Shown piece after piece: positions 4,817-63,599 of a DNA stretch of 64,000 nt; the first letter of the stretch is position 1; each line of letters opens with the position of its first letter. The DNA is taken from IMG/VR virus record IMGVR_UViG_3300020049_016248; one strand, 5' to 3'. The notes under the pieces are model-generated. The model ran no database searches and was not told where the DNA came from. It saw only the letters and a program-made list of their open reading frames with translations. The position numbers and the translations under genes are program-made. The DNA comes from a virus (Duplodnaviria > Heunggongvirae > Uroviricota > Caudoviricetes).

Positions 4817-5182
4817 ATGAAAGGAGTTTTATTTACAGTCAAAGTAACTAATGAAATAGAAAACCAACAAATGATGAATTTGTTTAAAGAGTTGTCTACA
4901 GTAGTTGGTGCACAGTTTCAAGAAAGGTTAAATAATTTTGTTACAAGTCATTCTTGTTTTACGAGTAGCAAATACTATCACTTAAATCATTGGGAACATG
5001 GTTGTGGTGTAGAATGGGACTATGGAACAGCAGATATAAAAACTCTTTCTATATACGAGAGAGGAGATTTCTTTTTTCTTTCAATACAGGAAGATTGGGA
5101 TCTTATAGTAAAATATGCTTTTTCAAGTGTAGATCCTTTAGAAAAAATTATTGAAGAAATTACTCAAGAGTTAGAATCATGA
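4817..5182 (+). CDS. hypothetical protein with C-terminal IxxEL tag
   Basis: ends LEKIIEEITQELES. Confidence 0.7.
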   Translation: MKGVLFTVKVTNEIENQQMMNLFKELSTVVGAQFQERLNNFVTSHSCFTSSKYYHLNHWEHGCGVEWDYGTADIKTLSIYERGDFFFLSIQEDWDLIVKYAFSSVDPLEKIIEEITQELES

Positions 5183-5574
5183 GACAACAATACAAATTAA
5201 TTGTTAGAGTTAATGAAGACGAGCAAAGTATATTTCGTTGTATAGATCTACTTAAACTTTTAGAAGAACAAGTCCGCTCTCATCAAAGTTCTTTCAATCC
5301 AGAGAAAATACAATTTTTAATTAAGTTTTTTTCCGGAAAACTATCCCTATATCATTGCGATTATGGTAAAGTAGTAATGGTATCTTTCAACTTATCCCCT
5401 TCATCTATTGGTTATACTACACTTGTTCACTATTTTAACACTCCACAGAATGAAGATGTACCAAAATATAACATTGTACATGACTTTCGTGAAATCTTAG
5501 GAGATTTACATCTCTTAGATTCTGATAGTATAGAACATGTTGTATATCAAATAGCAAAAGAGTTAAAAAAATAA
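5179..5574 (+). CDS. hypothetical protein with C-terminal IxxEL tag
   Basis: ends IEHVVYQIAKELKK; ATGA overlap. Confidence 0.7.
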   Translation: MRQQYKLIVRVNEDEQSIFRCIDLLKLLEEQVRSHQSSFNPEKIQFLIKFFSGKLSLYHCDYGKVVMVSFNLSPSSIGYTTLVHYFNTPQNEDVPKYNIVHDFREILGDLHLLDSDSIEHVVYQIAKELKK

Positions 5575-5582
5575 CTATTTAT
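5575..5582 (+). promoter_or_regulatory. candidate late promoter CTATTTAT
   Basis: TATTTA recurs just upstream of most virion gene starts. Confidence 0.6.
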
Positions 5583-5612
5583 ATATATCATTTATAATGA
5601 TGATATACATAA

Positions 5613-7445: not shown

Positions 7446-7487
7446 TAACAAAAAGTTACCAATTTTATATGATATTTAAAAAAATAA

Positions 7488-9553: not shown

Positions 9554-9611
9554 AAAAACAAAGAGCTTTGATAAAAACATTAAAGCTCCCCTATTTAAAA
9601 ACAAAAACTTA

Positions 9612-10670: not shown

Positions 10671-10680
10671 GAAATAATAC

Positions 10681-10710: not shown

Positions 10711-10713
10711 TAA

Positions 10714-11658: not shown

Positions 11659-11678
11659 TAGAAGAAAATAAGAAATAA

Positions 11679-11714: not shown

Positions 11715-11727
11715 AATAAATTTATTT

Positions 11728-12621
11728 TTATTTTCTTAATTCAGAATTAACTTCATTCACTATATCATACAACAAAGGGTTCTTAGAATATTCAATCAAC
11801 TTTGCGTAAACTTCAACATTCTTTTCAGCTTCATTCTTAGGAACACCTGAATTAGTTAAATCAATAGAACTAATATCAAAACCTTCTTGAATTAAATACT
11901 TTAAATTTTCTTCACGAAAAGTATAAAAATATCTTAATTTTAAAACAGAAGAAAGTTCAGAGAATAAATCAGCTTTATATGCTGGGAAAGCAGTTAAGAA
12001 AGCTTTCAAGTTTTGTTCAAAGAAAATCTCACGTACAAGCGGAAAGAGTCTCAAAGTTATTTCACGAAGTTGTATTTCTTTAACAACGTCAAGTTTAAGC
12101 ATTAAATCTACACGTTCATTTATAGATAATTTTATGTTTCTTAAAGAAAATGCAAAGAAATCTCTAGGTCGAGTAACAGGTACTCCATTGTTTAAGAGAT
12201 AATCGATTATTTCATAAGTACAATGAGAAAGAGCATACCCTAAAGTATTATGAAAACTCCCTAAACTTCTAGGTGGTTTATTCAAAAGCTTAGTTTTATT
12301 AAGTTTTTGTAATGCATCAAAATCGTTTTTTACAAGTAGCTCGTAAACACTAGTTGCGTTACCTGCTATTCTAAGTTCTAATTCTGAGAATGGAACTTTA
12401 GCTAAATTCCAAAGGTCATCTTTTGTCTTGAAGACACGCATTGTAGAATATGTTGCCCCTTTATTTAAAGTAACATAAGCAAAAGCAGCTGTTTCGATTG
12501 CAGAGTAATCTTTTTTTGAAATTGAATTATTAGGAATACTTTCTGATTCAATCATTTTAATTACACCTTCACATTTTGTTCCTTTAATTCGAATTAAAGA
12601 ACCTACTACAAATTTAGTCAT
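11728..12621 (-). CDS. ankyrin-like helical-repeat protein with C-terminal IxxEL tag
   Basis: TLGYALSHCTYEIIDYLLNNGV and LKYLIQEGFDI ankyrin-like segments; ends LYDIVNEVNSELRK. Confidence 0.55.
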   Translation of the reverse strand: MTKFVVGSLIRIKGTKCEGVIKMIESESIPNNSISKKDYSAIETAAFAYVTLNKGATYSTMRVFKTKDDLWNLAKVPFSELELRIAGNATSVYELLVKNDFDALQKLNKTKLLNKPPRSLGSFHNTLGYALSHCTYEIIDYLLNNGVPVTRPRDFFAFSLRNIKLSINERVDLMLKLDVVKEIQLREITLRLFPLVREIFFEQNLKAFLTAFPAYKADLFSELSSVLKLRYFYTFREENLKYLIQEGFDISSIDLTNSGVPKNEAEKNVEVYAKLIEYSKNPLLYDIVNEVNSELRK

Positions 12622-12821: not shown

Positions 12822-13307
12822 TTACTTGTTTAATGTTAATTTTAATTGATTTTCTGCATCTTTCCATCTCTTTCCATTACACTCTGGCCCTATACCACTA
12901 AGCACACTTACTGGGTTTGTAAGCTTTCTACCACAACGACCACAAGACCCTTCATGCCAGATTTCAACTTTACTTGGTAAGGTGTTATTTTCAACAAGAT
13001 TAATAAACTTTGCAAAAACTTCTACTTTTTTATCAGTAGCAGATAAAGTAGATTTTTTTGAATGTTGATAATTAAATTTACCAAACAATGTTCCTAAGAA
13101 TGAATATGATTTTTCATTATCTTTCCCAGTCATTAAATTGACAAAATAAATTGGTCTTTTAGGGTCTTGTTTTTTTGGTGCAGAAACTCTAAAAGTTAAA
13201 TGATTACCTGAACTTGGGTTACGTAAAGTAAAAGTAGCATTCCCTGCAAAAATAAAATCAATAACAGATTGAACTGTTTCCAATTTATGTTTATGAGTAA
13301 TTTCCAT
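12822..13307 (-). CDS. DUF6011-like zinc-binding protein
   Basis: AGNATFTL and HEGSCGRCGRKLTNPVSVLSGIGPEC. Confidence 0.7.
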   Translation of the reverse strand: MEITHKHKLETVQSVIDFIFAGNATFTLRNPSSGNHLTFRVSAPKKQDPKRPIYFVNLMTGKDNEKSYSFLGTLFGKFNYQHSKKSTLSATDKKVEVFAKFINLVENNTLPSKVEIWHEGSCGRCGRKLTNPVSVLSGIGPECNGKRWKDAENQLKLTLNK

Positions 13308-13322
13308 GGCTCTTAATTTATA

Positions 13323-13357
13323 ATCTAAAGATATGATATAACTAGTAAACTTCCTAC
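13323..13357 (-). promoter_or_regulatory. candidate early promoter copy
   Basis: reverse complement GTAGGAAGTT-tactagttatatca-TATCTTTAGAT. Confidence 0.75.
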
Positions 13358-13611
13358 TAAATTAAAGCTTTTTTAGCTTCCATAACTCCTTTATATTCTC
13401 CTTTTTGTGCATTGTAAAGAATTTCATGAATCACATATGCAGCTTCATAATTATCAGAACTCACCTTTAATTCAACATTATTATATCTAATAATCCCTTC
13501 AGGTCCACCTTTTGGATTACCATAACTATAACCGTTAGGATTTTTCATTATTTGTAAAATAAGTTCTATTTCAAATTTATTATCACGAATAATATTATTT
13601 GTATTTGCCAT
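13357..13611 (-). CDS. hypothetical protein
   Basis: ORF flanked by two promoter copies. Confidence 0.65.
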   Translation of the reverse strand: MANTNNIIRDNKFEIELILQIMKNPNGYSYGNPKGGPEGIIRYNNVELKVSSDNYEAAYVIHEILYNAQKGEYKGVMEAKKALI

Positions 13612-13634
13612 AGATATATGTTTTTTAATTTATA

Positions 13635-13669
13635 ATCTAAAGATATAGTTAAACTAGTAAACTTTCAAC
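13635..13669 (-). promoter_or_regulatory. candidate early promoter copy
   Basis: reverse complement GTTGAAAGTT-N14-TATCTTTAGAT. Confidence 0.75.
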
Positions 13670-13725
13670 TAAAATTGAAGAAATCTATAGAATCAAACAT
13701 ATTTAAGGTTATATAAAATAAACAA

Positions 13726-14505
13726 ATGAAATCAATAAGAAAAGAACGTTTTTTATTAGATGAGTCTAAGTGGGACAGAAAAAGAAAGATGAACTCTAAA
13801 GCATCTACTTTTTTATTAGAATCAGAAGGTGGAGAATCTTATATAGAAAGATGTAAACGTAATCCTGATTTGCCTTTATTCTTAACAGGTATTATTCAAA
13901 CAGGGGATAAGCCAAATAGAAATAATAGAATTTATCCATGGGAATATCTTAAAAGAGAATGTTTAAGATATATGGAAGAAAAAGTTAATACAGGTTTATC
14001 ATATTGTGAATTAAATCACCCAGAGAACTCTACAACCCCAGATCTTAATAATGCATGTGCAACAATTGATGATATCTGGTTTAAAGGTAAAGATGTTTAC
14101 GGTAGAGTAAAAGTATTAAATGCTTTTATGCCAGAAACAGCACCAGGTAAAATGGTTAGAGGTTTTATTTTAAATGGTAAAAATATAGGTATCTCATCAA
14201 GAGCATTAGGGTCATTACAAGAAGATTCTTATTCAGAGCATGATATAGTAGATGAAGACTTAGAATTAATTTGTTGGGATTTAGTAGATAGTGCATCTAA
14301 CTTTGGTTCAGAAAAATTAGATTTAACAGAAAGTTCATCTAAAAAATCTTCTTTACTGTTGACAGAAAGTCAATGTTATGAAGGTGTTTGTGGTTTAAAT
14401 AATAAACAAATTAAAACTTTAAATCAATTAACTGAATCGGAACAAACATATTTGAATATACTTGGAGTTGAAAAGTACTTACAAATATCTGCTAAGTTAA
14501 AGTAA
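13726..14505 (+). CDS. gp21: prohead core protease (T4 gp21-like)
   Basis: GIIQ..D.PNRNNRIYP, ELNHP (His), IGISSRALGS (Ser), WDLVD. Confidence 0.93.
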   Translation: MKSIRKERFLLDESKWDRKRKMNSKASTFLLESEGGESYIERCKRNPDLPLFLTGIIQTGDKPNRNNRIYPWEYLKRECLRYMEEKVNTGLSYCELNHPENSTTPDLNNACATIDDIWFKGKDVYGRVKVLNAFMPETAPGKMVRGFILNGKNIGISSRALGSLQEDSYSEHDIVDEDLELICWDLVDSASNFGSEKLDLTESSSKKSSLLLTESQCYEGVCGLNNKQIKTLNQLTESEQTYLNILGVEKYLQISAKLK

Positions 14506-14633: not shown

Positions 14634-16160
14634 ATGGCAAATAAAAACAAAAAAAACGTTACTGACGTATTTGATGGTTTAAAATACGTTGATAAAGTTC
14701 TTAATGAAGCTGCCGGTGTTAAAACAGATAAAGATTCTTTAAATGAATCTTTTGAAGATCGTTTAAGAAACCGTCTTACAGAAAACACAGAGGAAGCTGA
14801 AACTGAGGATTTAAACGAATATGAAAATGCTTACAATTATAATTACAATTATGATGAAGCAGGTTCAAATGAGTTTTTAGGAGAAGAATTTCCTGAAGAC
14901 GAGGATGAAGACGAAGATGAATTAGATATTGATTCATTAGGGTTAGATCTTGACAACGAAGTAGGTGCAATTGCTGCTGCTGATATGGAAGATGAATTTT
15001 CATCAGAAGATGAAGATGAAACTAATCCATGGAAAGAAGGTGAAGAAGAAAATTTCAACTTTGAAGAAGATACAGATTTAATGGAAGCATTATTATCTGA
15101 AGGTCCAGAAGATGAAATTGAATCACCAGAAGTAGAAGTTCCTGAAATTTCTGACGAATTACCTGCAGAAGGTGATGTTCCAGCTCCAGTTGATGTTGAA
15201 GCAGGTGTTGATACAGCAGAAGGTGATTTAGATTTAGGTGCTGCTCCAGAAATGGGTGGTGATATGTCTATGCCATCTATGAGTGATGTTTCAGCATCAG
15301 AACCATCAGGTGTAGAAGATATAACAGCTTCAGCAGAAATTACTCCTATTGCACAACCAGAAGATATTGATCAGTTAATTGCTGATTTAGTATCTCCAGA
15401 AGGTGAAGTAGAAGAAACATCTCCAGTAGTAATCGGAGAATCTGAATTAAAAGATTTAGGTTTTGAAAACTTAGGTGATGAAGACGTTGATTCAAAAGTA
15501 AAAATGGAATCTAAAAACAACAAAACAAAAGCAATCGTGGAAGGTGAAATTAAATTAACTAAACTAGGAGATAAAGAAATCACTGGAAACGTTAGAGGTG
15601 CAGAAGCATCTAAAGCAGTAAAACATTCTGGAACAGGTAAAAAAGTAGACCCATCTGGAAATACTTTTGAAGATTTAGGAGATGAAGATATTAATTCAAC
15701 TAAAGTAAAAGAAACAGGTTCAGCTAAAGTAACTGCTCAACCAAAATTTGCTGAATTGAAAAAAGAATCTGAACAAAAATCTAAAGCTTTATATAATTTA
15801 GCTGAACAAGTTGTAGATTTACAAGATGAAGTATCTAAGTTAAAGTTTGAAAATTTCAAATTAAAACAAGCTAATTCAGTTCTTACATTAGTAGAAGAGT
15901 TAAAACAATCTACTAGAGAGAAATTAGTTGAGAAATTTGATAATTGCAAAACAGTTGCAGAAGTTAAAAAACTTTACACTGAAGTTGCTTCAATGGTAAA
16001 AGAACACAAACGTGGTTCAATTAACGAAGCAGTACTTAAAAATTCAAAATCAATTAAGCATTTTGCTGAATCAGTAAATTCTCCAGAAGAAGATAATGAT
16101 CAAGCAAGAAAAAATTACTTAATGGGTCTTGAAGGTTATGATGATCAATACTTAAAATAA
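14634..16160 (+). CDS. prohead scaffolding protein
   Basis: very acidic with C-terminal coiled coil, between protease and MCP; many LxE sites. Confidence 0.8.
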   Translation: MANKNKKNVTDVFDGLKYVDKVLNEAAGVKTDKDSLNESFEDRLRNRLTENTEEAETEDLNEYENAYNYNYNYDEAGSNEFLGEEFPEDEDEDEDELDIDSLGLDLDNEVGAIAAADMEDEFSSEDEDETNPWKEGEEENFNFEEDTDLMEALLSEGPEDEIESPEVEVPEISDELPAEGDVPAPVDVEAGVDTAEGDLDLGAAPEMGGDMSMPSMSDVSASEPSGVEDITASAEITPIAQPEDIDQLIADLVSPEGEVEETSPVVIGESELKDLGFENLGDEDVDSKVKMESKNNKTKAIVEGEIKLTKLGDKEITGNVRGAEASKAVKHSGTGKKVDPSGNTFEDLGDEDINSTKVKETGSAKVTAQPKFAELKKESEQKSKALYNLAEQVVDLQDEVSKLKFENFKLKQANSVLTLVEELKQSTREKLVEKFDNCKTVAEVKKLYTEVASMVKEHKRGSINEAVLKNSKSIKHFAESVNSPEEDNDQARKNYLMGLEGYDDQYLK

Positions 16161-18015: not shown

Positions 18016-18048
18016 AAAAAGAGCTAAGAATTAACTTAGCTCTTTTTT
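18016..18048. terminator. bidirectional terminator after MCP
   Basis: AAAAAGAGCTAAG-aattaa-CTTAGCTCTTTTTT. Confidence 0.85.
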
Positions 18049-18336
18049 ATTTCTTATATCTTCTTTAAGTTCTTCGTCTATCTCATATAATATATGAGCA
18101 ATAGTACGTATCTCAAAACATAGTATAGGAAAATTCCAAGGAGCGATATGTTCATCATATTTAACTATAAACACATTTGGGAGTATTTCTTCTACAATTT
18201 CTACTTCTTTCCTACAATAGAAAAACATAGAAGTTGTAAACGTTTCATGACCTAGATCAAAACCGTCTGAACTTAGTTGATATTGTTCTTTTAATGTTGA
18301 TAATTCTTTGACAAAAACTTTATCACCTAGTTTCAT
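18031..18336 (-). CDS. SH3/KOW-like hypothetical protein with IxxEL tag
   Basis: MKLGDKVFVK N-terminus; IAHILYEIDEELKE near C-terminus. Confidence 0.65.
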   Translation of the reverse strand: MKLGDKVFVKELSTLKEQYQLSSDGFDLGHETFTTSMFFYCRKEVEIVEEILPNVFIVKYDEHIAPWNFPILCFEIRTIAHILYEIDEELKEDIRNKKELS

Positions 18337-18744
18337 TTAATTCAACGTTTATTTGAGCAACAATAAAAGGTAAGGTAGGAGTTGAAGAAATATAATCTTT
18401 AAGTGCACTTCTTTGAATTTCAACCATGTAATCAGCATAGTTTTCTGGTGTGAAATAATTCCAATTCTCTTCAGTTAACATCTCTCTCGTATAAGGGCAA
18501 CCGTGAACTGCATCTAGATCTTTTTCCCACCGTTCTTCTAATAAGTTATATGAAACTTCATCAATTTCAAAAAGTAACTATGATCAACTGGTCTTTCAAG
18601 GTCTGTTTCATGTCCTAAGAATTTTCCAACAACTAAAAAGTTTTTGTTTAAATTTTCGGAAAAGTCTAAGTATACGAGATCACCAACTTTTAACTGTTGA
18701 ACAAGTTGGTTAAGAGTTTCTTTTTCAGATTTAGTACGTTTCAT
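18323..18744 (-). pseudogene. gene split by a 1-nt frameshift in a T5 run; repaired product ends in the IxxEL tag
   Basis: ORF 18538-18744 continues in the -1 frame as FEIDEVSYNLLEERW...TLPFIVAQINVELNETR-stop. Confidence 0.7.
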
Positions 18745-20258: not shown

Positions 20259-20774
20259 TTATTTTACAATAAAATGTTCACCTAACATTTTAACAGCTGC
20301 GATACTTTCAATTGAAAAATCACGAACTTTAATTTCCTTTTCAGTTTCCTGTGTGTTTGACTTTTGAGGAACTGGCATGAATTCTTGAATTAATTTCACT
20401 TCAATAGGAGTACCATCACACAGCCAAATTGTATTTTGAGCTTTTCCACTTGGTTTTGCTTCAACATAAAAACTACCTTTATGTTGAATAAGTGGAGTTC
20501 CTTCAATTCTTTCACCCCATTTACGTGCATGAGCTACGAAAGGTGTTTCAATTCCTTCTTTTTCTCTTTGATTGTTAACTGAATTTGTATAATTAAAATT
20601 CAACATAACGTGCTGGGTCGAAAGCTTTTGAATACGACCGTAATATGGATTACCTGTTTTTTTCATCGTTGGAGATGTTACAGTTTCCAATGTAGCAGGT
20701 GTAGCTGTTTTTAAACGAGAAAAGATTGTAATCAATTCGTTTATTGTAATGTGTTTTGGTGCTTTGTTTGCCAT
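20259..20774 (-). CDS. hypothetical phage protein
   Basis: first gene downstream of an early promoter copy. Confidence 0.7.
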   Translation of the reverse strand: MANKAPKHITINELITIFSRLKTATPATLETVTSPTMKKTGNPYYGRIQKLSTQHVMLNFNYTNSVNNQREKEGIETPFVAHARKWGERIEGTPLIQHKGSFYVEAKPSGKAQNTIWLCDGTPIEVKLIQEFMPVPQKSNTQETEKEIKVRDFSIESIAAVKMLGEHFIVK

Positions 20775-20795
20775 GATTTTATGTTTTAATTTATA

Positions 20796-20830
20796 ATCTA
20801 AAGATATGATATAACTTGTAAACTTTCTAC
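20796..20830 (-). promoter_or_regulatory. candidate early promoter copy
   Basis: reverse complement GTAGAAAGTT-tacaagttatatca-TATCTTTAGAT. Confidence 0.75.
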
Positions 20831-42475: not shown

Positions 42476-43118
42476 AAGACCTCGTGTTGGTATTGTTATC
42501 GACTATAGTCTTCGTGTACCTAATTTTAAAGAAAGTTATCTAAAGTTTAAAGAACAAGTATTAGTAGGTGTAGCTTCTGCTGCTAATTTAGGTGAAGAAG
42601 ATATTTTAGATGAAAATAACTTCTGGGAGAAAGAAAAGAAACTACACCCAGAAATGATTACTTTTTACTCTAAAACACCAGTCCCTAATTCCAATTGGGA
42701 ACCTGGATTCGATTTAACATATACAAAGTATTTCTTTAACAAAGATCATTTATCTAAATTTTTAGAAGAGTGGTCTTTTAATTTATTTGGACAAGGTATT
42801 ATTGCTAATAAAGCTGATATTAACATTGTTAATTTAGCTCAAAGTAAATTGTTTGATGTAGTTTTATTAGATGTAATTACACATACAAGAAAAGTAGCTA
42901 ATACTTTTGCGTTTTTATCTAAATCTGGTTTGTTTGTAAAAGAAGTAAGATTTGTAAGTGAAAGTGAATTAGAATCTTTAGGGAAAGAGTTTATAGGTTT
43001 ATGGAACCCTTTTTTAGAAGAAGGTAAAGTTATAGAAGGTGTAGGTAAGTTTGAGAAACCTACGCAGAAACTTTTAGATTGGTTTATGGAATTAGAAACA
43101 AAGCAAAATACATTATGA
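42453..43118 (+). CDS. hypothetical protein, possibly degenerate HAD/nucleotidase-like
   Basis: VGIVIDYSLR N-terminal strand. Confidence 0.45.
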   Translation: MKKKKVSRRPRVGIVIDYSLRVPNFKESYLKFKEQVLVGVASAANLGEEDILDENNFWEKEKKLHPEMITFYSKTPVPNSNWEPGFDLTYTKYFFNKDHLSKFLEEWSFNLFGQGIIANKADINIVNLAQSKLFDVVLLDVITHTRKVANTFAFLSKSGLFVKEVRFVSESELESLGKEFIGLWNPFLEEGKVIEGVGKFEKPTQKLLDWFMELETKQNTL

Positions 43119-43408
43119 TTAAAAATTATTTAATATTTCAAGCAACTATAGGTATAAAAGGACTTAGGATGGAGGAGGCAACGAAAAGTAGTCAAGAAGT
43201 TCAAACTATTTTACAAAAAGAATTAGAACAAGAAGGTTTTACTGTTAAAGTAATTGTTGTTCCAGATACTTCTATAGAATATGGTGTTGATATTAAGTTA
43301 ATTTACCCAGTCTATAACTTAATAGATAAAGATGCTTATGATAAACATATAGAACTACATCAAGAAATAGATAAGATTAAAAAAGAATTAGAGACTAAAG
43401 TTGATTAA
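43115..43408 (+). CDS. hypothetical protein
   Basis: ATGA overlap; ends LHQEIDKIKKELETKVD (weak tag). Confidence 0.6.
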   Translation: MIKNYLIFQATIGIKGLRMEEATKSSQEVQTILQKELEQEGFTVKVIVVPDTSIEYGVDIKLIYPVYNLIDKDAYDKHIELHQEIDKIKKELETKVD

Positions 43409-47198: not shown

Positions 47199-47606
47199 AT
47201 GTATGTAGAAATTGCACCAAGACAAACAGGGAAAACAGCTAGACTTATAGAAAGATTAGTTGTAGAGGTATTGAATGGAAAAACAGTTGCTTTGGTTAGT
47301 AGAACTAAAACAATGGCAAATAGTATTAAGCATAAAATTTTAGAAAAATACCCGGAAATAAATTCATCTAGAATAATGACTTCACACGTTATGTTAAGGG
47401 GAGTAATAAATTTTGTAGATGAGTTTGATTTTATAGATGAAAAAAATTTATTTATAGATAAAGACAGTTATTATACTACATCACTTCATAATGAATTAGG
47501 TACAGTTTTTACAAGAGATTTATATATAGGGTACATAAATCAACCTGAATTGTCTGAGTTTGAGAAAGTAGTAATTAATATTCAAAAAGAAATTAATAAT
47601 GGCTAA
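47199..47606 (+). CDS. mini terminase-like P-loop ATPase with IxxEL-type tag
   Basis: PRQTGKT, FVDEFD; ends FEKVVINIQKEINNG. Confidence 0.65.
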   Translation: MYVEIAPRQTGKTARLIERLVVEVLNGKTVALVSRTKTMANSIKHKILEKYPEINSSRIMTSHVMLRGVINFVDEFDFIDEKNLFIDKDSYYTTSLHNELGTVFTRDLYIGYINQPELSEFEKVVINIQKEINNG

Positions 47607-47952
47607 GAAAAAAGTTAAAGTTAGTGATGATGGACTAGAGGAACTTATAAACGATTTATATAACAGTTGTTTGGACGATGTTGAAGAAGCAAACTTAAAT
47701 GTAAACTTATATAAAACAGAGGTTTTAAATAACACTTTAGGTAAAGAAAGTTATGGTACTTTATTATCTGATGCTTTAAAAATCAAAGGAGCTGCAAGGG
47801 ATCGAATAATAAAAGTAGTAAATCTAGTAAAGGATAGGGTAAAATCTAAAGAATTTTTAGATAAATCTACAAATCAAGATGATATGTCTCCAGAAAACAT
47901 CGTAAAAGGGTTAGATATGTACTTACAAGAAGACGAAGACGGTGATGAGTAA
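47599..47952 (+). CDS. hypothetical helical protein
   Basis: ORF in operon. Confidence 0.6.
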   Translation: MAKKKVKVSDDGLEELINDLYNSCLDDVEEANLNVNLYKTEVLNNTLGKESYGTLLSDALKIKGAARDRIIKVVNLVKDRVKSKEFLDKSTNQDDMSPENIVKGLDMYLQEDEDGDE

Positions 47953-48124
47953 ATATAAAAATATTTCAAGTGAAGAACTAGAACAAAGACGTAATCTTTT
48001 ACATACTAAATCGGAAAGTTTACGTCTTTCCCTTATTAAGCAATGTGCTGAGTTAGATTCTTTATATAAAGAATTAATGCTTATTACAGGTGAATTGAAA
48101 ATAAGAAAAGAATTGAATGGCTAA
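47942..48124 (+). CDS. small coiled-coil protein
   Basis: ORF in operon. Confidence 0.55.
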   Translation: MMSKYKNISSEELEQRRNLLHTKSESLRLSLIKQCAELDSLYKELMLITGELKIRKELNG

Positions 48125-49824: not shown

Positions 49825-50670
49825 ATGGAAACAACATTTATTTATGCACTGATTGACCCTAGAGATAATAAAGTAAGATATATTGGGAAAGCAAATAAGC
49901 CTAAGTATCGTTTACAAGCACATTTAACAGATAAGACAAAAACACATAAATGTAGTTGGATTAAAAGTTTGTTAAAAGAAGATTTAAAACCAGAACTTTT
50001 AATCATAGATGAAGTTTCTTTTAAAGAATGGCAATTTTGGGAACAACATTATATCAGTTTATATAAATCATGGGGGTTTAATTTAACTAATGGAAACAGT
50101 GGCGGGTATGGACAGGTAAAATGTTCTGAAACTACTCGGGTAAAATTACGTCTAGCAAATTTAGGTAAAAAAATTTCTAATGCGACAAAAATTAAAATGA
50201 GTAAAAGTCATAAAGTATTTTATGCAAAAATGACTATAGAGCAAAAAAAAGAAAGAAAAAAAATTGCCAAACTAGCAGGTAAAAAAACAAAAAAAACACG
50301 AACAAAAAACAATTCATATTCTCGATCTTTAGAATCAATAGAGAAAATGTTACAAACGAGAGTTGAAAAAAAGTTAAATAAACATTCAGAAGTCGCTAAG
50401 GCTAAAATGCGTGAAAGACGATTGGAAAACCCGGTTACCTTTTGGAAAGGTAAAACTAGTGAAAATTGTGAGCAAGTTAGAAAAAATGCAGAAAAGCGTT
50501 GTAAAAAAGTTTTGCAAAAATCTCTTGAAAACGGTAGTGTTAAAGAATGGTCATCAATAAAAGAAGCTGCGTTGACACTAAATATAGCATCTTCTAGAAT
50601 AAGTGAATGTTGTAATTCATATAAAGGAAGAACAACAATTGGTAAATATAAATGGGAATTTAAGAAATAA
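49825..50670 (+). mobile_element. free-standing GIY-YIG homing endonuclease with NUMOD3/NUMOD1-like repeats
   Basis: FIYALIDP..VRYIGK, EQHYI, LTN..GG, SEETRxK-type repeats, WSSIKEAA..ISECC..YKW. Confidence 0.85.
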
Positions 50671-55927: not shown

Positions 55928-56290
55928 ATGGAGAAGTTTCCCTATACAGCAGGTGTTTTTAAACGAATGGATTGCATTTGTGAAATTTATGCAATCCATT
56001 CTACCCCTAGTCGTAGTTGTGCACTTAGTTATTGTATACCAGTTAAAAGTTTACCAACTGCTTTTTTTGAATCACTGACAGACCCAGATGATAGGGTGTT
56101 TTGTTTGAAAGAGTGGACTGTTGCTAATTGGGCTTCCAATAATCAGCTTACTATAGATGTTTCAGAAAATATTACCTCTCACTTTGGAGATGAATGTATT
56201 TGGGTGTCAGATGTTGAAATTTGTTTAATAGAAATAAAAGATATAGAAAAAGAAATTATAAAAATTAACGTTGAATTGAATTCACAATGA
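55928..56290 (+). CDS. IxxEL-tagged hypothetical protein
   Basis: ends IEKEIIKINVELNSQ. Confidence 0.7.
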   Translation: MEKFPYTAGVFKRMDCICEIYAIHSTPSRSCALSYCIPVKSLPTAFFESLTDPDDRVFCLKEWTVANWASNNQLTIDVSENITSHFGDECIWVSDVEICLIEIKDIEKEIIKINVELNSQ

Positions 56291-56694
56291 GCTTAAGAGA
56301 TACGGAATTAGTTTTAGGTGATATAGTTAAAATTATAATAGGGCATCAAACTTTTATTGGAGAAGTTGTTGTTGTTAGAAAGTTTTTAAGTGATTACGCT
56401 AAAAAAAATTGGAATAAAACTTTAATAAAAATTATAGACGGTGCTCCATATAAAGTACTTCCTACTCAAACTATCACCCCCACACTTTTTAGAATAACAC
56501 ATGATATAATTAATAGAGAATTAACAGAGCATCAGAAAGAGTTTTACATTGAAGAGTCTAATCTTCAAGAAGAAGATCTTTTCAGTTTAGCAACATGGAT
56601 ATCAAATGATGTTACATATTTGGAAAAGGTTTCAGAAAACATTTTACTTTTAAGCAAAACTATAAGTAGTATAAACGAAGAATTAGAAAGTTAA
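56287..56694 (+). CDS. IxxEL-tagged hypothetical protein (KOW-like start)
   Basis: LVLGDIVKI; ends LSKTISSINEELES. Confidence 0.7.
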   Translation: MSLRDTELVLGDIVKIIIGHQTFIGEVVVVRKFLSDYAKKNWNKTLIKIIDGAPYKVLPTQTITPTLFRITHDIINRELTEHQKEFYIEESNLQEEDLFSLATWISNDVTYLEKVSENILLLSKTISSINEELES

Positions 56695-56695
56695 C

Positions 56696-56941
56696 ATGGC
56701 AACACAGACAATTTATGTTTTTCAACCTGAAGATTATCAAGGTGAATTGAATTTAAACGCATTAGAAAGAAGAATTATTGTTCGAGAATTAAAAAGAACT
56801 CAACGTTTCAATAAAGCAGTTGCTTTGTTAGGGTTTACTACAAAGAGTTTAGAACGAAAATTAGTAGCACATCAAATTAAAGAAGAAGAATGGAAAGTTA
56901 TAAAACCAAGTACATCTAAGTTTAGAACAAAATGGGATTAA
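56696..56941 (+). CDS. Fis-like (HTH_8) DNA-binding protein
   Basis: LNALERRIIVREL.RT...KAVALLGFTTKSLERKL. Confidence 0.75.
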   Translation: MATQTIYVFQPEDYQGELNLNALERRIIVRELKRTQRFNKAVALLGFTTKSLERKLVAHQIKEEEWKVIKPSTSKFRTKWD

Positions 56942-57264
56942 CACAAAATGTATTCAAACCAATCTCTGTTAACAATACAATTGTTTATAAAGACAAACAA
57001 TATGTTGTAAGAGGTATAATGCAAGACAGAGGTTCTGAATGGATATTAGTAGACTGTAAAGAGGTAAGTTTTATTGATGGTAGGACTTGTTTTTTTCTAA
57101 CACGTTCAATGTTAGATAATTGGTCTGTAAGAGAACCTTTGTTAGATGAAGCAAATCTTAAAATTGGAAATGCTTACTGTTGGTTACCTTCTAAGGAAGT
57201 AGAGTTACTTAGTTTAGATCAAATAATTTTAAATATTAACATTGAGTTAGATTCAAATGTGTAA
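56932..57264 (+). CDS. paralog-array protein with IxxEL tag
   Basis: YVVRGI..WILV; ends LDQIILNINIELDSNV. Confidence 0.7.
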   Translation: MGLTQNVFKPISVNNTIVYKDKQYVVRGIMQDRGSEWILVDCKEVSFIDGRTCFFLTRSMLDNWSVREPLLDEANLKIGNAYCWLPSKEVELLSLDQIILNINIELDSNV

Positions 57265-57646
57265 AGCATTATCTTTAGGTAGGTTTCGTCTTGGACAAGT
57301 TTATTCTTTTGAAGGACTTGATTTTATTGTCCGCGGTGTGATGGATAATGGATTTGCGAATAAACCTCAAAGATTATTATTAGAGATTTATAAAGGAATT
57401 AATTATACACACTTGAATAGTCAGTGGGAATTGAATGATTATAGTTTTGTTATGGGGGAAGATATTAACTTGTATATCGCTAATTGGGAACAACAAAATC
57501 ATTTTATAGATAAAAAAGTATTACTTCCAGACTCTCGTTATATTGTATTAATGAACACTGTTTTATTATCTTTCGGTGTTGAATTAGATTCATTTTTAAT
57601 GGCTGAAGAAATAAAAAAAATAACACAAGAATTAAACAATGAATAA
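57257..57646 (+). CDS. paralog-array protein with IxxEL tag
   Basis: FIVRGV..RLLL; ends MAEEIKKITQELNNE. Confidence 0.7.
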   Translation: MCKALSLGRFRLGQVYSFEGLDFIVRGVMDNGFANKPQRLLLEIYKGINYTHLNSQWELNDYSFVMGEDINLYIANWEQQNHFIDKKVLLPDSRYIVLMNTVLLSFGVELDSFLMAEEIKKITQELNNE

Positions 57647-57998
57647 GTTTTTTTTAAATCAAGTTTTTTTTAAAGACGGTTATTATTTAGTCGTTCGAGG
57701 TGTAACAGGTAAAAGTTTTACAGGTGTAAAATCTAATCAAGAATTATTGTTAGAAGTTCGTAGTTCTGTAGAAGGTTCTAATAATTTAATAAAACCTTCT
57801 TGGTTAGCACATTCATTTGTTTTAACAAAGGTGACAAGTCATATTGCAGCATGGGAAAGTCAAGAATTTTTAATTGCTAAAAACTTTTTAAAAGAAGGAA
57901 AAAAATATGTTTGGTTGTCAGCTGATAAGTTTAGTAGAGAAGTTTTTGAATCATTAGAAGTTATTGTAGATAATATTAATAGAGAATTGAATGCATGA
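57639..57998 (+). CDS. paralog-array protein with IxxEL tag
   Basis: LVVRGV..ELLL; ends LEVIVDNINRELNA. Confidence 0.7.
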   Translation: MNKFFLNQVFFKDGYYLVVRGVTGKSFTGVKSNQELLLEVRSSVEGSNNLIKPSWLAHSFVLTKVTSHIAAWESQEFLIAKNFLKEGKKYVWLSADKFSREVFESLEVIVDNINRELNA

Positions 57999-58321
57999 AA
58001 TCTGAAAAGTTAAAATATACTAAATATACTATTGGTAGTTTATTTGATGGTAAATTAGTTTTAGGTTTACTTTATGATAAACAAATGGATGAAGGTTATC
58101 TATTAGTTGCAGATGAAGAAAGCGGTTGGAATTGGAGTGCAGCAAAAGCATACGTACCTGAAGTTCAGCAGAGGTTTGAACAAAGTTATGACTTGGAGTG
58201 TGGTCGAAAAGTTTTGTGGAAATTTGTTTTGAGAGAACAAATTATGTTCTCAGATGAAATAGTAGATGAATCTTTTAGTAATATAGTTAACGAAATAAAC
58301 AATGAGTTATACGATAAATAG
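57995..58321 (+). CDS. paralog-array protein with IxxEL tag
   Basis: YTIGSLF..LVLGL..YLLV; ends FSNIVNEINNELYDK. Confidence 0.7.
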   Translation: MKSEKLKYTKYTIGSLFDGKLVLGLLYDKQMDEGYLLVADEESGWNWSAAKAYVPEVQQRFEQSYDLECGRKVLWKFVLREQIMFSDEIVDESFSNIVNEINNELYDK

Positions 58322-58598
58322 TTTTTACAAAGATGGTGGAAATCTTAAACGAATTTTAGGAGTGTATGTTAATTCAACTCGTGATTCTGGAGCTATATTA
58401 CTTCCTAATAGTGATGGTTGGACTTATGAAGTAGGTGTAGAGCGTAATTGGACTCCAGGGTTTACAGTAGAATATAGTACTTGGTTGAAAGAAGGTACTC
58501 GTGTTGCTTGGATAGTTGTTGACATTGGAGATATATATTTTTCAAGTCAAGAATTTGAATTTACAATTAATCAAATAAATTTAGAACTAAACTCATGA
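58302..58598 (+). CDS. paralog-array protein with IxxEL tag
   Basis: YTINSFY..RILGV..AILL; ends FEFTINQINLELNS. Confidence 0.7.
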   Translation: MSYTINSFYKDGGNLKRILGVYVNSTRDSGAILLPNSDGWTYEVGVERNWTPGFTVEYSTWLKEGTRVAWIVVDIGDIYFSSQEFEFTINQINLELNS

Positions 58599-59335
58599 AA
58601 GCATTTTTAGAAACATTAGGTGAAGAGTATTTAGACGACTTTGTCTACTGTTCTGTTTTACCTTTAAAAGATTTAGGTTATACAATTGTAAAATTTGATG
58701 GTGCTGATTTAGAAAACACACTTTTGAATAAACGAATTACATCTTCAGATATTATTATTGGTTCTGTAGAAGCAACGAGTGCATTTTTTCAAGAGCTTAA
58801 AATTCAAGAACCTAAATATTTAGGTTACCCAGAAGAGTTAGAACAATACTTAGGTAGAACGATTAGTAAAATTACATTAGAAGAATGTAAACAATGGAGT
58901 TATCCTTTTTTCATAAAACCGGCTGATAAAATTAAGTTATTTTCAGGTAGTTTGATTGAAAAAGAAAGTACAATAAACTTCTTAAAAGAATATTGTAATG
59001 TCCCAGGTGAAACTTTAGTTTATTTAAGTGATCTTATTAAAATTAAGTCAGAATATAGAGTCTTCGTTTACAAAGGGGAGATCAAAGGTATTCAATATTA
59101 TCTAGGTGATTTTAAAACATTCCCTTCAATAGATAAAATTGAAGAAATGGTAAGAACTTACACTAGTTCACCAGTAGCTTACACGTTAGATGTTGGTGTA
59201 ACTGATAAAAATGAAACAGTTTTAATTGAAGTGAATGACTTTTGGGCTATAGGGTCATATGGATTTGATGCTAAAACTTATGTTAAGATGATTATTTCAC
59301 GATTTCAACAAATAATTTTACAACATGTCTGTTAA
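58595..59335 (+). CDS. ATP-grasp domain protein (DUF4343 / R2K-like)
   Basis: YPEEL..YLGR, FFIKP..KLFSG, SEYRVFV, YTLDVG, LIEVND. Confidence 0.85.
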   Translation: MKAFLETLGEEYLDDFVYCSVLPLKDLGYTIVKFDGADLENTLLNKRITSSDIIIGSVEATSAFFQELKIQEPKYLGYPEELEQYLGRTISKITLEECKQWSYPFFIKPADKIKLFSGSLIEKESTINFLKEYCNVPGETLVYLSDLIKIKSEYRVFVYKGEIKGIQYYLGDFKTFPSIDKIEEMVRTYTSSPVAYTLDVGVTDKNETVLIEVNDFWAIGSYGFDAKTYVKMIISRFQQIILQHVC

Positions 59336-59675
59336 ATCAAAACCATATAAAATCGGAGATATGTTAAATGGCAAGTTAATTGTTGGGACGTGGTTCCAAG
59401 AATCTACTAAATTTACTAATTCAAGTTGTTTTCTTTTATTGAAATTTCTCGACCCTTCTGAAAAAAATTTGAATGTTGATGGTAGGAATGGGTTTGTTTT
59501 AAGTGAATATGCAATTGAAAAGTGGAATGATTTAGAGAGTGTTACATATTATGTTGATTGGAATTTAGTACGTTACCATGACAATGTTATCTGGACATCA
59601 GTATCAATGGACGTATTCCCTTTAATACAAATTGAGATAATAATCAAAGCAATAAATGATGAGTTGAATGAGTAA
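59325..59675 (+). CDS. paralog-array protein with IxxEL tag
   Basis: YKIGDML..LIVGT..FLLL; ends IEIIIKAINDELNE. Confidence 0.7.
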   Translation: MSVKSKPYKIGDMLNGKLIVGTWFQESTKFTNSSCFLLLKFLDPSEKNLNVDGRNGFVLSEYAIEKWNDLESVTYYVDWNLVRYHDNVIWTSVSMDVFPLIQIEIIIKAINDELNE

Positions 59676-60072
59676 AGGTCAAACGTATAAGATAAATAGT
59701 TTATACAAAGGAGCTATTGTTTTAGGGGTTTACAAGCATTATACTAGAGATATCTTTTTTACAAAAGGAAGTCGTTTTAAGACTTCATCTTGGATTTTAG
59801 TTCTTGATAACGTTTTAGTAACTGAAACATTAACTGGTAGTATATTACTTGAGAGTGTTTGGGACACTTATAAAGCAGGTTCAAACCCTTTTCAAATTGT
59901 TGAATTTTTACCTGCAGAGGAATTGGAAATACTCCAACTGTCAGGTGATTCAAAAGTAACATGGTTACCGATAAAAGAATATCAAGGTGAATCTGTTGGA
60001 TTTATTCAAACAGACAATCTAATATTAGAAATTGATAATGAATTAAAAGAATGGGAACAAGAAGATTTGTAA
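59668..60072 (+). CDS. paralog-array protein with IxxEL tag
   Basis: YKINSLY..IVLGV..WILV; TDNLILEIDNELKE near end. Confidence 0.7.
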   Translation: MSKGQTYKINSLYKGAIVLGVYKHYTRDIFFTKGSRFKTSSWILVLDNVLVTETLTGSILLESVWDTYKAGSNPFQIVEFLPAEELEILQLSGDSKVTWLPIKEYQGESVGFIQTDNLILEIDNELKEWEQEDL

Positions 60073-60782
60073 TGGGGGACATACATGGTGAAGCTGATAA
60101 ATTAAAAGCTGCATTGAAAGCTGTAAACTTTGACTATGAAAACGATGAACTAATACAATTAGGGGATATTGTAGACAGAGGTTTACAGAGCTACGAATGT
60201 GTTGAAGAATTATTAAAAATAAAAAAACTAATCTCAATAAAGGGTAACCATGACGTTTGTTTTTATGATTCAATAAGAACAGGTCGAGCTAATATTTTAT
60301 TCAATCAAGGTGGTAAGCAAACTTTACAATCGTACATAAGAAATTGCGACCCAGATAAAGAAATTTCTATTAAACTCTCTGAGTATTCTACAGATTTTGA
60401 TTATGACAATTACCCTATAACACATATTAATTTCTTTGCCAATCAAAAAAATTACTACCTTGATCAAGAAAATAACTTTTTTGTACACGGTGGTTTTGAT
60501 CGTCATAAGTTAGTTGAAGAAGAATCTGACCCAGAAGTATTCTACTGGGATAGAGATTTATTCTTAGCAGCTAAGAGCTATGCAAGTATGAAAAACAATA
60601 ATTATCCTTTTAAAATGAAAAATAATTTCAAAGAGGTTTTTATTGGACATACTCCAACGACATACTTTGAAGAAACAAAACCTATTAATGCTGCAAACAT
60701 TTGGAATTTAGATACAGGTTGTGGTAAAGGAGGATTATTAACGATTATGAATGTAAAAACAAAAGAATATGTCCAAGTCTAG
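60051..60782 (+). CDS. metallophosphoesterase (lambda NinI/PrpA-type Ser/Thr phosphatase)
   Basis: GDIHG, GDIVDRG, GNHD, VHGG, GHTP, LDTG. Confidence 0.92.
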   Translation: MGTRRFVMGDIHGEADKLKAALKAVNFDYENDELIQLGDIVDRGLQSYECVEELLKIKKLISIKGNHDVCFYDSIRTGRANILFNQGGKQTLQSYIRNCDPDKEISIKLSEYSTDFDYDNYPITHINFFANQKNYYLDQENNFFVHGGFDRHKLVEEESDPEVFYWDRDLFLAAKSYASMKNNNYPFKMKNNFKEVFIGHTPTTYFEETKPINAANIWNLDTGCGKGGLLTIMNVKTKEYVQV

Positions 60783-61095
60783 AAGAGGGAGACCTAAAAA
60801 AGGTTTAGAATTAATTAAAACTGTTAATATAATAGGTTTAGAATTATTAGAAAAAGATTTTATAAAAGGGGAACATGTTTATTATATTCCTCCACATCTT
60901 ATGAACACTGAATTGTACCTAACACATCCTCAAGTTGAATCAGGTATTGTAAGCTCAATGAACAAACAATATGTTTTTGTTCGTTTCTTTGAAGTAGATG
61001 GGGAAAAAGGTCTTGTAAGTTTACAGGAAACAGGAAAAGCATGTTCTAGGGATAATTTATTTCCAATGTCTATTAGAGATATAATTCCATATTAA
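60769..61095 (+). CDS. hypothetical protein with AT-hook-like RRGRPKK
   Basis: motif plus SH3-like remainder. Confidence 0.55.
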   Translation: MSKSRRGRPKKGLELIKTVNIIGLELLEKDFIKGEHVYYIPPHLMNTELYLTHPQVESGIVSSMNKQYVFVRFFEVDGEKGLVSLQETGKACSRDNLFPMSIRDIIPY

Positions 61096-61120
61096 CCAAT
61101 GAAAACAAATAATAAATAAA

Positions 61121-63599
61121 ATGGCAAAAAAACAATCGTCAACATCTCAGTTAGGACATAACTATGTCTACCATTATAATGAATTTGAATGTAAATGGTA
61201 TTGCATTCACAGAGATAGTTATATGAATTATTGGAATAAAAATTTTAAACATGATGACCGTCTTTGGACTTCAGGTCAAACAGCAGAAGAAGCAGCTGAA
61301 AAAATGTTAAAACATCCAGTTAGAAAAAAGAAAGAAGCTTTATAATGATACTACACATATCTTTATTTATTGTAGCATGGATTTTATTGTTTCTTATCAA
61401 CATACAAATGTATAAATTGTATCGTAGGAGAGAAAATTTCTTCTACCCAAGTGTACTGTTTTGTTTTCTTCATATTGTAGGAACTCTTTTACTTTTAATT
61501 CTTTTAATTGATACTTACAATGTATTTAGTAAAATTTTAAATTATTTTAAGAAATAAAAATGATTGAATGTATATTTGAAGAATTGAAAGTAGGAGATGA
61601 AGTAGTAGATTTAGAATCTAACACTGGGGTAGTAGATAGTATTGGTGATATTCATAATATTTTTGTCTTATACGGTGAACAAGGTAACCTTGGAAGTGGT
61701 TTACATTGTTTAGATAAGAGCTGTAGTCATTATGACCCATTGTTTAAATTAAAACCACAATTAACATGACATTAGAAGAATTGATTGCACAAGAACTTTA
61801 CTCAGATGTAAAGTTAGAAGATGCATTAAAATATGTAGAAGCTGATAAGCAAAACGGTAAACACTTATATTCAATGAATGAAGTAATTCGTTGTATGAAA
61901 TCAGCTCTAAGTAATAAAATAAATTTACCTGTCGTGAAACATACGAGAGATTTTTCTTCTTTTCAAGAAGGAAAAATTTATTCAACAGTAGGAGCTTGCC
62001 CAGAACCTTTTTTAATTAAAAAGATTGTTACTGTTGAAAGAAAAGGTGGGTCAAAAGAAATTGTAAAGTTTATTGGAGAGTATGTTAATAGACCTAATTT
62101 AGGTTTATGTCCGATAAACCCTGAATTGTTAAACTCTAAAGTGAAATAAAATGGATTTAAACCTTGACCCTAATAGTGAAATTATAATAGGATGTATTCC
62201 TATTGTTTTACAAGACTTTCCACCTGCTGATTATAAAAACCCTTTTATAGGGAAATGTGAAAATTGTGATAAAGACATTTGGATGAGTGAAAAGAAAAAA
62301 CAAGTTAAATTAGATCATCCGAAAGCAAAGTGTTTATGCATGTTTTGTTGTGCTAAAGTAGTAGCAACTGCAGATAAAAATGAATTTACAGTTCGTAATA
62401 TAGGTGAAGGTAAGAGTCCTTCTACCCCTGGTGAAGATTTAGAAATGTAAAAAAAAATAAAATGAGAACTCCAAAACCAAAAAGCAAATTAGTAAATAAA
62501 ATAGGTAAATTTACCCCAAAATTAGTTCCAGAACCGAAATCAGAACCAGGGTTACTTTGGGTTGATGAAAAAGCACAAGAAGAAGATGAAGATCAACCTT
62601 TTAATACATTATCATCACTTGGAAGAGGAGCGACAGATACATTTGTTACAGAGAATTTAATTGTTAAAGGTAACATGACTCCTACATTACCACCACAAGT
62701 TTATTATACAAATTTAAGGGTACAGATAGAAAACTATCATGGAACAGGGTTGTATTACCCACCATTATCCTTAAATCTCGGTGAAGTTGTTGTCAGTCAA
62801 TCTACCTGCTCATCTTATGACAGTTATGGTTCACTCACAACTGTAACAACTTTAACAATCGGGACACCTTGCTTAATTCATGATTTTGCATTAGAGAATG
62901 AAATAAAAAGACACACTCACACACGTGATGCTTTACTCCAAGAGCAAGAATATGTAATTAAAAAATTAAAAGCAGAGATATCAACTACGCAAGATCTTTT
63001 AAGTTTAGCTAAAACAGTTCTAAAAGATCATAACTTAGAAGATCAATTGTTGATTGCTGAATTCACTAAGGGTGTAACTGATGAGTTGAATACATAAAGA
63101 AAATATTTTAATTTTAGCTCCTATGAAATATAATGTTAAAGCAACTTTAAAGAAAGTTAAAACCCTTAAAGGTAATCCGGTAAAACGAACAATCGTAAAG
63201 AAAAATAGTTTTAATGCAAATCTTTTTTTACAAAATTGTAATAAGCGTAGGAAATTAAAAAAAGGAACTGCAAAAACTTTAAAAGATTTAGTTACATTAA
63301 TGAATTTTGAATTACAATCATAAATGAAAAAAAAGAAAACAACTACACCATCGGGATGGCAGACAGTTTATGACGAAAGTCTTTTGAAAGGTTTAGAAGC
63401 TTTATTGTTACCTCTAGGTGCTGAAATGTTAGCCTCACCGCCTGAGTATCATGATGTTGCTGTTGACTTTCTTGAAGACTTCAAAGTTCATTACTGTGAA
63501 ACTTTAGATGCTAAAGGTCATAAGAAACCACGTAAGCAAAGTTATAAACAAGCTTTAAAACAAACCGTTAAAAGTATAAATGATGAGTTGAATGCTTGA
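61121..63599 (+). other. run of small hypothetical genes (61121, 61345 TM, 61560, 61766, 62151 Zn-finger, 62462, 63123, 63324); 62462 and 63324 carry the IxxEL tag
   Basis: tightly packed co-directional ORFs; ends IAEFTKGVTDELNT and LKQTVKSINDELNA. Confidence 0.65.

Follow-up and report, generated by a model that had tools for sequence, protein, structure and literature searches.

A C-terminal peptide shared by small phage proteins

The window analysed here, a 64,000-nt stretch of a virus of the Caudoviricetes (IMG/VR record IMGVR_UViG_3300020049_016248), encodes many small proteins of dissimilar sequence that end in the same short peptide. This tag has the consensus h-x-x-h-h-x-x-I-N-x-E-L-N (h, hydrophobic residue), followed by 0 to 12 residues and the stop codon, and it is found in about 47 open reading frames (ORFs) of the genome to which the window belongs. 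We suggest that the tag may be a constant interaction surface, a handle read by one shared partner, with the protein bodies supplying diversity; this reading is drawn from the sequences, and we give it an even chance.

The window corresponds to bases 62291-126290 of a single record of 191,278 bp (G000) and has a G+C content of 29%. It differs from that record at 30 single positions, 15 of which are within 58507-60532, i.e. inside the hypervariable array described below. A T4-type portal, a gp23-type major capsid protein, a tail sheath and a large terminase subunit are encoded in G000, which is a distant T4-like myophage. DNA nearly identical to it is present in metagenomes of activated sludge, anaerobic digesters and wastewater that were sampled in several studies, and the phage is an uncultured wastewater phage. 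No RNA data sets carrying the array were listed, and literature searches found no published description of such C-terminal tags. Logan contigs of four sequencing runs were fragmentary, with frequent breaks in the array, and were left out of the evidence. ORF calling over the full record yielded 294 non-overlapping ORFs covering 93% of the sequence. The relatives compared were L018 (a close one), L008, L009, L010, L019, L020 and G001, the last two being partial records (L020 of 21 kb; G001 of 89 kb, including its arrays); the capsid protein of G001 is 86% identical to that of G000. Coordinates are those of the window unless given as genome positions.

The tag is a 13-residue amphipathic segment that ends a C-terminal helix, with hydrophobic residues at positions -7, -4, -3, 0 and +4 relative to the Ile. 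Among the 47 sequences, Glu+3 is invariant (47/47), followed by Leu+4 (46/47), Ile0 (44/47), Asn+1 (30/47, with Asp in 7) and Asn+5 (27/47). The stop codon typically comes 2-4 residues later, and the terminal residues are not conserved. In G000 the tag is neutral to acidic, Asp/Glu being frequent and Lys/Arg rare at +1. The conserved stretch, about 3.5 turns of helix, bears a hydrophobic stripe with conserved polar residues on either side, and its length may fit a docking helix rather than a coiled coil.

The position of the motif at protein ends is far from what composition would give. IN.ELN has 20 matches in G000 against 0.12 expected, and all of them lie within 7 amino acids (aa) of a C-terminus. 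The looser I[ND].EL has 44 matches against 3.6 expected by composition, and 36 of these are within 12 aa of the end, a zone that makes up 6.5% of all positions (binomial P = 2e-35); per-protein shuffles gave a mean of 0.25 C-terminal matches and a maximum of 3. Of 56,142 positions, 57 reached a score of at least 10 in a position matrix covering -7 to +5, which was trained on its own matches; 49 of these sites stand no more than 12 aa from a C-terminus. The K-type variant I[KRQ]xE[LI] is C-terminal in 7 of its 10 occurrences; it adds the ORFs at 43079 and 47942 and supports those at 41161 and 47199. As a control we used 80 loci from other phages that encode sigma factors and have a G+C content of 25-37%. 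I..E[LI] stands near the end of 24 of 1,682 small ORFs in these phages (1.4%) and of 44 of 223 in G000 (20%), and loose forms of the tag reach 1.4-3.7% in the small ORFs of the control loci. The idea that such endings are just as common in AT-rich phage proteomes therefore did not hold.

The tag is kept by selection on the peptide and is not constrained at the DNA level, since its codons for Ile0, Asn+1, Leu+4 and Asn+5 are used as in the rest of the genome (P 0.37-0.85); a mild excess of GAG for Glu is the sole deviation. This bears out the initial annotation of the window, made from the sequence alone, which had already concluded from synonymous variation that selection acts on the protein. 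That annotation listed 18 ORFs with the same exactly spaced ending. For all 18, translation at the coordinates given there yields the listed C-terminus. Single ORFs deviate from the consensus: the ORF at 47199 has E-I, the motif is set back from the end in those at 18031 and 41161, and it is weak in that at 62462. The list was true but too small. Three more bearers are found inside the window (43079, IKKELETKVD; 47942, IRKELNG; 63123, MNFELQS) and about 29 outside it, chiefly at genome 129.6-149 kb. The tag is missing from large virion and replication proteins, as had been claimed, and its largest bearer has 297 aa. The tagged features of the window are listed below, with matrix scores where available; dN/dS (ratio of nonsynonymous to synonymous substitution rates) refers to the comparison with L018.

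4817-5182, plus strand: tagged ORF of 121 aa ending LEKIIEEITQELES (score 20.8; no Pfam or PHROG family)
5179-5574, plus strand: tagged ORF of 131 aa ending IEHVVYQIAKELKK (score 23.9)
11728-12621, minus strand: tagged ORF of 297 aa ending LYDIVNEVNSELRK (score 19.4), with N-terminal beta strands and a helical, weakly ankyrin-like middle
18031-18336, minus strand: tagged ORF of 101 aa with the motif IAHILYEIDEELK followed by 11 residues (score 21.1)
18323-18744, minus strand: tagged gene, probably split by a frameshift into 18538-18744 (68 aa, start ...LKVGDLVYLDF) and 18323-18481 (52 aa, ending LPFIVAQINVELNETR; score 26.7)
41161-41634, plus strand: partial paralogue of the gp21-type prohead protease, 157 aa, with the motif LEKEISKIKKELK followed by about 10-11 residues (Peptidase_S77, 6.5e-5; score 19.8)
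43079-43408, plus strand: late-module ORF of 109 aa ending IDKIKKELETKVD, a K-type tag (score 16.4)
47199-47606, plus strand: Walker-A (APRQTGKT) protein of 135 aa ending FEKVVINIQKEINNG, with E-I in place of E-L (score 17.5)
47942-48124, plus strand: ORF of 60 aa ending GELKIRKELNG, a K-type tag (from the K-type variant scan)
55928-56290, plus strand: array 1 member of 120 aa ending IEKEIIKINVELNSQ (55% identity to the L018 orthologue; dN/dS 0.71)
56287-56694, plus strand: tagged ORF within array 1, 135 aa, ending LSKTISSINEELES (dN/dS 0.82); outside the array alignment and without an hhalign link to its family
56932-57264, plus strand: array 1 member of 110 aa ending LDQIILNINIELDSNV (dN/dS 0.44)
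57257-57646, plus strand: array 1 member of 129 aa ending MAEEIKKITQELNNE (dN/dS 0.68)
57639-57998, plus strand: array 1 member of 119 aa ending LEVIVDNINRELNA; modelled as six strands and then a helix at residues 95-118
57995-58321, plus strand: array 1 member of 108 aa ending FSNIVNEINNELYDK (dN/dS 0.52)
58302-58598, plus strand: array 1 member of 98 aa ending FEFTINQINLELNS (dN/dS 0.41)
59325-59675, plus strand: array 1 member of 116 aa ending IEIIIKAINDELNE (dN/dS 0.17)
59668-60072, plus strand: array 1 member of 134 aa with the motif TDNLILEIDNELK followed by 7 residues; the L018 orthologue is truncated ahead of the tag
62462-63097, plus strand: ORF of 211 aa ending IAEFTKGVTDELNT (VTDELNT), the weakest tag (score 11.4)
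63123-63323, plus strand: ORF of 66 aa ending LVTLMNFELQS, a variant tag seen in the sequence
63324-63599, plus strand: Lys-rich ORF of 91 aa ending LKQTVKSINDELNA (score 26.4)

The split gene at 18323-18744 had been proposed as frameshifted. The 52-aa ORF with its perfect tag is plausibly the 3' half of a gene whose 68-aa upstream ORF carries an N-terminal LKVGDLV strand.

Kinship and folds of the bodies

The tagged proteins are mostly 83-155 aa long, with a maximum of 297 aa, and their genes lie mostly in co-directional, overlapping arrays (55928-63599, and genome 129.6-149 kb). No Pfam or PHROG families could be assigned to the bodies as a set. With the tag removed, BLAST and iterated hidden Markov model (HMM) searches join the bodies into only seven small groups, about 30 remaining as singletons, and in hhalign the array-1 body profile matched the other tagged bodies with probabilities of 4% or less, barely over untagged controls. 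Within the array, eight members (55928-60072, the ORF at 56287 not included) align end to end, and Met1 is the only invariant residue of the bodies; these members form one diverged family, probably of small beta-barrels. Near the N-terminus, a K-x-G-D-x-V strand is present in 14 of the 44 small ORFs with a tag and in 4 of the 114 without one. The initial annotation had described the bodies as completely different, which stands for the majority that cannot be linked by sequence and fails for this array and for the third that shares the strand.

The AlphaFold2 (AF2) model of the protein encoded at 57639-57998 (predicted local distance difference test score, pLDDT, 73) has six strands followed by a 24-residue helix. 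Foldseek found no match to it in the PDB at E <= 0.001. Structural matches in the Atlas were to CAP-Gly, with TM scores up to 0.44, all below 0.5, and the best matches in VIA were all small barrels (CAP-Gly, Tudor, KOW) with weak Z scores of 3.0-4.2; Atlas feature searches gave scores under 0.9. The HMM of the array family, run against 1.84 billion representatives, had 15 matches, one of which is a spurious repeat protein. Six retrieved non-spurious matches beyond the query set are small ORFs, all ending in INxEL, and the rest appear to be the query family itself. Judged by these searches, the family is rare.

Conserved late-module proteins of other types carry the tag as well (41161 and 47199). 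The Peptidase_S77 match of the first spans positions 49-139 only, the full gp21-type prohead protease being encoded at 13726-14505, and in L019 its counterpart is split into two ORFs, the second of which ends in VINEIEEELS, a canonical tag. The Walker-A protein at 47199 is 72-100% conserved in the relatives and has a late-type promoter motif 9 nt upstream. Its AF2 model is of low confidence (pLDDT 53), and its profile matched nothing among PDB sequences. Of the fold labels first given to the bodies, the protease is supported by the Peptidase_S77 match, whereas the SH3-like assignment is weak (Z <= 4.2) and the ankyrin (E 0.027) and P-loop (E 0.03) assignments miss the Pfam thresholds.

Rapid divergence of the array

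Against L018, the tagged genes of array 1 have 55-81% identity and dN/dS values of 0.17-0.82, while their untagged neighbours, with similar dS, have 89-100% identity and dN/dS values of 0.01-0.25. The medians are 0.52 for 11 tagged genes and 0.04 for 19 untagged neighbours (Mann-Whitney P = 2e-5), and the dN/dS of the array bodies is about tenfold that of the neighbours. The tag is kept in L018; its proportion of nonsynonymous differences (pN) is at most 0.09 in 5 of the 8 array-1 genes with a comparable tag.

One conserved gene inside the array matters for the interpretation given below.

58595-59335, plus strand: R2K-clade ATP-grasp gene, without a tag, lying within array 1; its L018 copy is 97% identical, and the L019 array contains it as well

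A metallophosphatase gene (60051-60782) likewise lies inside the hypervariable array and is 97% identical in L018. The two conserved genes among the fast-evolving tagged ones make the array a sharp mosaic. Elsewhere in the compared stretch, a 281-aa ORF (49825-50670) is the sole untagged gene strongly diverged from L018 (dN 0.48 over 183 alignable codons), and L019 has a GIY-YIG homing-endonuclease-like gene at the corresponding place.

Tag dialects in related phages

A search for the tag in related phages, as had been proposed, found the same architecture in lineage-specific variants, which we call dialects. The I-N-x-E-L dialect is used by G000, L018, L019, L009 and L010. In the more distant relatives the architecture is the same and the tag is changed, to I-[RK]-x-E-I-[YNG] in L020 and to I-[KR]-x-E-I-G-L-stop in G001 and L008, where it ends about 20 small ORFs. 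Judging from the sequences, body homologues from different phages carry the dialect of the phage in which they reside. The 297-aa protein ends in VNSELRK in G000, IKKETA in L020 and IKQEIGL in G001, its homologues being found at E values of 3e-37 and 1e-17. The G000 ORF at genome 142009 and the L020 ORF at 9449 have INIELN and IKQEVN, respectively, in an alignment (E 1e-13) that reaches the last residue. In two weaker cross-phage pairs the tags likewise follow the dialect of the resident phage. Such behaviour of homologues favours one shared reader. The codon diversity of the tags excludes recent gene conversion, and the change of tags in step therefore suggests a common selective agent.

A proposed handle for a shared partner

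The bearers of the tag, about 47 in number, are small accessory proteins restricted to a lineage, and many of them evolve fast. We suggest that all tags of one phage would be read by one common partner. The tag would co-evolve with its reader, phage by phage, and the variable bodies would give many specificities, much like a library of effectors or adaptors in an arms race. Besides the dialects, the composition of the tag points in this direction. Glu+3 is invariant and Asn+1 and Asn+5 are strongly conserved, though no body residue is conserved to pair with them, and a conserved polar face without a conserved partner in the same chain points to contact with another molecule.

Several observations weigh against this interpretation. 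The change of tags in step is documented by two strong and two weak homologue pairs, and the conserved protein at 47199 keeps I-Q/K-K-E-I in G000-type phages, off the dialect of its phage. The fold assignments of the non-barrel bodies fall below threshold, and many bearers probably share one small beta-barrel fold, so that the helix could be a fold or self-association element inherited by descent.

The best-supported alternative follows from this last point. The bearers may be one hugely expanded, fast-diverging paralogue family (an SH3/Tudor/chromo-like barrel plus a C-terminal helix) with no external reader. The helix would then be its most constrained structural or self-association element, and the dialects would result from array duplication and loss with recent founders. 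We regard this as possible, if somewhat unlikely. It agrees with the full-length alignment of the array, the K-x-G-D-x-V strand, the tandem, co-directional and overlapping genes, the six strands and helix of the model and the small barrels among its weak best matches. In addition, 35 of 45 best body matches (E < 0.05) are within the same phage, and the 297-aa protein can be read as a barrel plus helix with an inserted domain. However, bodies beyond the small groups remain unlinkable even by profile methods, the conserved Asn and Glu residues of the tag lack conserved body partners, and late-module proteins outside the arrays are tagged too. Cross-phage homologues show the resident dialect rather than a shared ancestral tag, and there is no sign of gene conversion that would homogenise the tags. 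A comparable expansion is known in Bacillus phage G, where about 35 zinc-ribbon copies form a lineage-specific expansion (PMC7824862). The likeness lies in dozens of copies of a small protein type arrayed in one large phage genome; the difference is that the whole domain is conserved there, while here only the last 13 residues are, and these also occur on non-array proteins.

Candidate readers of the tag

The likelihoods that we attach to the candidate readers roughly divide the even chance given to the handle reading as a whole. A host or phage machine that we do not name is the most probable of them, and we propose it tentatively. Among named candidates, the proteins encoded at the following locus, seen in the sequence, come first.

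820-2971, plus strand: candidate reader locus with an AAA ATPase (820-2004), a 102-aa ORF (2026-2334) and a ClpP-family protease (2309-2971)

The AAA ATPase is a member of the classical unfoldase clade, that of Afg2, Mpa and Msp1. Its gene is two genes away from that of ClpP, which makes a protease hub an attractive candidate. The tag would then be an adaptor-docking or degradation signal for the phage's own AAA unfoldase with ClpP, which we consider rather unlikely. No relatives of this ATPase were found in viral contigs. Carried further by analogy, and held with equal reserve, the idea would be an "addressed effector library", in which about 47 binders dock, alone or with captured host defence proteins, into the AAA unfoldase and ClpP. 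This would be a self-contained targeted-degradation system in a virus of bacteria, with a co-evolving helix and reader; the F-box, BC-box and PRANC adaptors of other viruses would be its counterparts.

The F-box, SOCS/BC-box and poxvirus ankyrin-PRANC families resemble the tagged set in combining many variable recognition domains with one short conserved helix, often C-terminal. They are also expanded and fast-evolving in host-virus conflict, and the BC-box helix is of similar length. Their hubs, however, belong to the eukaryotic ubiquitin system, and they have no sequence or profile similarity to the tag; a Pfam search with 52 tagged proteins gave no F-box, SOCS-box or PRANC match at E <= 0.01. 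The ClpXP adaptors of the SspB type share a small beta-barrel and a conserved C-terminal docking element, and the phage here encodes an AAA unfoldase and ClpP. SspB differs in being a single gene with a short, extended docking peptide (LRVVK type), and no homology was detected (no Pfam match).

In another version of the handle reading, the reader would be the prohead interior or scaffold. The helix would be a C-terminal capsid or prohead targeting signal, and its bearers would be packaged and injected as anti-defence internal proteins. C-terminal peptides or helices dock cargo, scaffold or protease in several HK97-fold shells, among them the P22 and herpesvirus scaffolds, the HK97 protease and the encapsulin cargo peptides, and such docking offers a precedent for this role. 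By analogy, the closest precedent is the capsid targeting sequence (CTS) of T4, found on IPI, IPII, IPIII and Alt. The internal proteins of T-even phages have been described as highly diverse defence proteins among which only a targeting sequence is conserved (PMC3012670). As in the tagged set, a short peptide is the sole common feature of small, diverse, fast-evolving accessory proteins, and the CTS sends all of them to one destination. The bearers of our tag are small and diverse, and the array-1 members evolve fast. Moreover, four tagged genes lie in the late/structural module, including the prohead-protease paralogue and the gene with a late-type motif.

The details, however, differ. The CTS stands at the N-terminus and measures about 10 aa; it terminates in an L/I-x-E prohead-protease site, is removed by cleavage, and is carried by a handful of proteins. 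In the present phage the element is a C-terminal helix with I-N-x-E, without a protease site at a fixed position, on about 47 proteins, which as cargo species would far exceed the few known in T4-type heads; the head proteins of this phage do contain T4-type L-x-E sites. The late-type motif, [AC]TATTTAAA[AG], precedes structural genes, those for the portal and capsid included, by 4-35 nt, but it was not found on the coding strand over about 31 kb of arrays, and array 1 begins after a terminator hairpin. A capsid destination seems improbable to us.

The ATP-grasp ligase embedded in array 1 is a very doubtful reader. It would recognise the helix and modify the invariant Glu or the nearby C-terminus. 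R2K-clade enzymes are predicted peptide or protein ligases, and RimK and the tubulin ligases modify acidic tails. The gene lies inside the array in G000, L018 and L019, is 97% conserved against 55-81% for its tagged neighbours, and would find a target in the invariant Glu+3. Nevertheless, the motif can be followed by anything between 0 and 12 residues, with no conservation at the very end. Neither of two partial records, G001 (89 kb) and L020 (21 kb, its called genes), yielded a homologue.

Lastly, a nucleic-acid signal at the 3' ends of genes (a promoter, a translational coupling element or a recombination site) is scarcely credible: the genes lie close together and in many cases overlap the start codon that follows, and T4-type phages have mobile regulatory cassettes between small early genes, but the motif is always in frame, varies in its distance to the stop and to the next start, has no underlying direct DNA repeat and uses synonymous codons at genome-wide frequencies, on which ground we rejected a DNA-level signal.

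Three further candidates were tried and rejected. A cationic membrane-targeting helix of the MinD/FtsA type does not agree with a neutral to acidic tag with an invariant Glu. A T4-like cleavable cassette would need an L/I-x-E at a fixed position upstream of the tag, which is not present. The sliding-clamp-binding motif (QL[SD]LF or LDFLF) was discarded because the tag has no conserved aromatic position. Clamp-binding tails (T4 gp43, gp33 and gp55; bacterial QL[SD]LF) are similar in being portable C-terminal docking peptides that bring unrelated proteins to one hub. They are aromatic-rich, extended and found on DNA and transcription enzymes, in contrast to the present tag, which has no aromatic residue and occurs on small proteins.

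Promoters and neighbouring genes

A promoter-like element of about 45 nt, GTT[TA]AC-N10-22-ATCTTTAG-(A/T)TATAAAT, was found 18-63 nt upstream of nine genes, with sites at 3040-3085, 12822-13726 (divergent) and 20774-20800 of the window and at genome 32.9, 34.3, 137.3, 159.4 and 179.9 kb. This element and the late-type motif are probably separate promoter classes, middle and late. In array 1, scanning for sigma-70 promoters gave no excess over shuffles.

Beyond the last tagged ORF of the window, a gene for an Hc1-like histone-like protein (63651-63830) is followed by a strong terminator (63835-63867). A phage sigma-70-family factor with regions 2 and 4 is encoded at genome 126190-127044, from window position 63900 past the window end, and at least 580 stretches of viral contigs contain relatives of it (31-38% identity). 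The stretch 14634-16160, which separates the genes for prohead protease and major capsid protein, encodes an extremely acidic protein of 508 aa with long Asp/Glu runs, which is probably the scaffold. It is 42% identical in G001, against 86% for the capsid protein.

Meaning of the tag

If the tags do have one reader, one in five small genes of a large phage would belong to one functional system instead of being "hypothetical proteins". The helix would then be a means to purify the partner and a rule by which effector genes that evolve fast could be spotted in uncultured phages. It would also be a short natural tag with which cargo could be sent to a machine of the phage or of its host. If it is only the core of one expanded family, the tagged proteins would still be a large, undescribed, lineage-restricted gene family with arms-race-like evolution.

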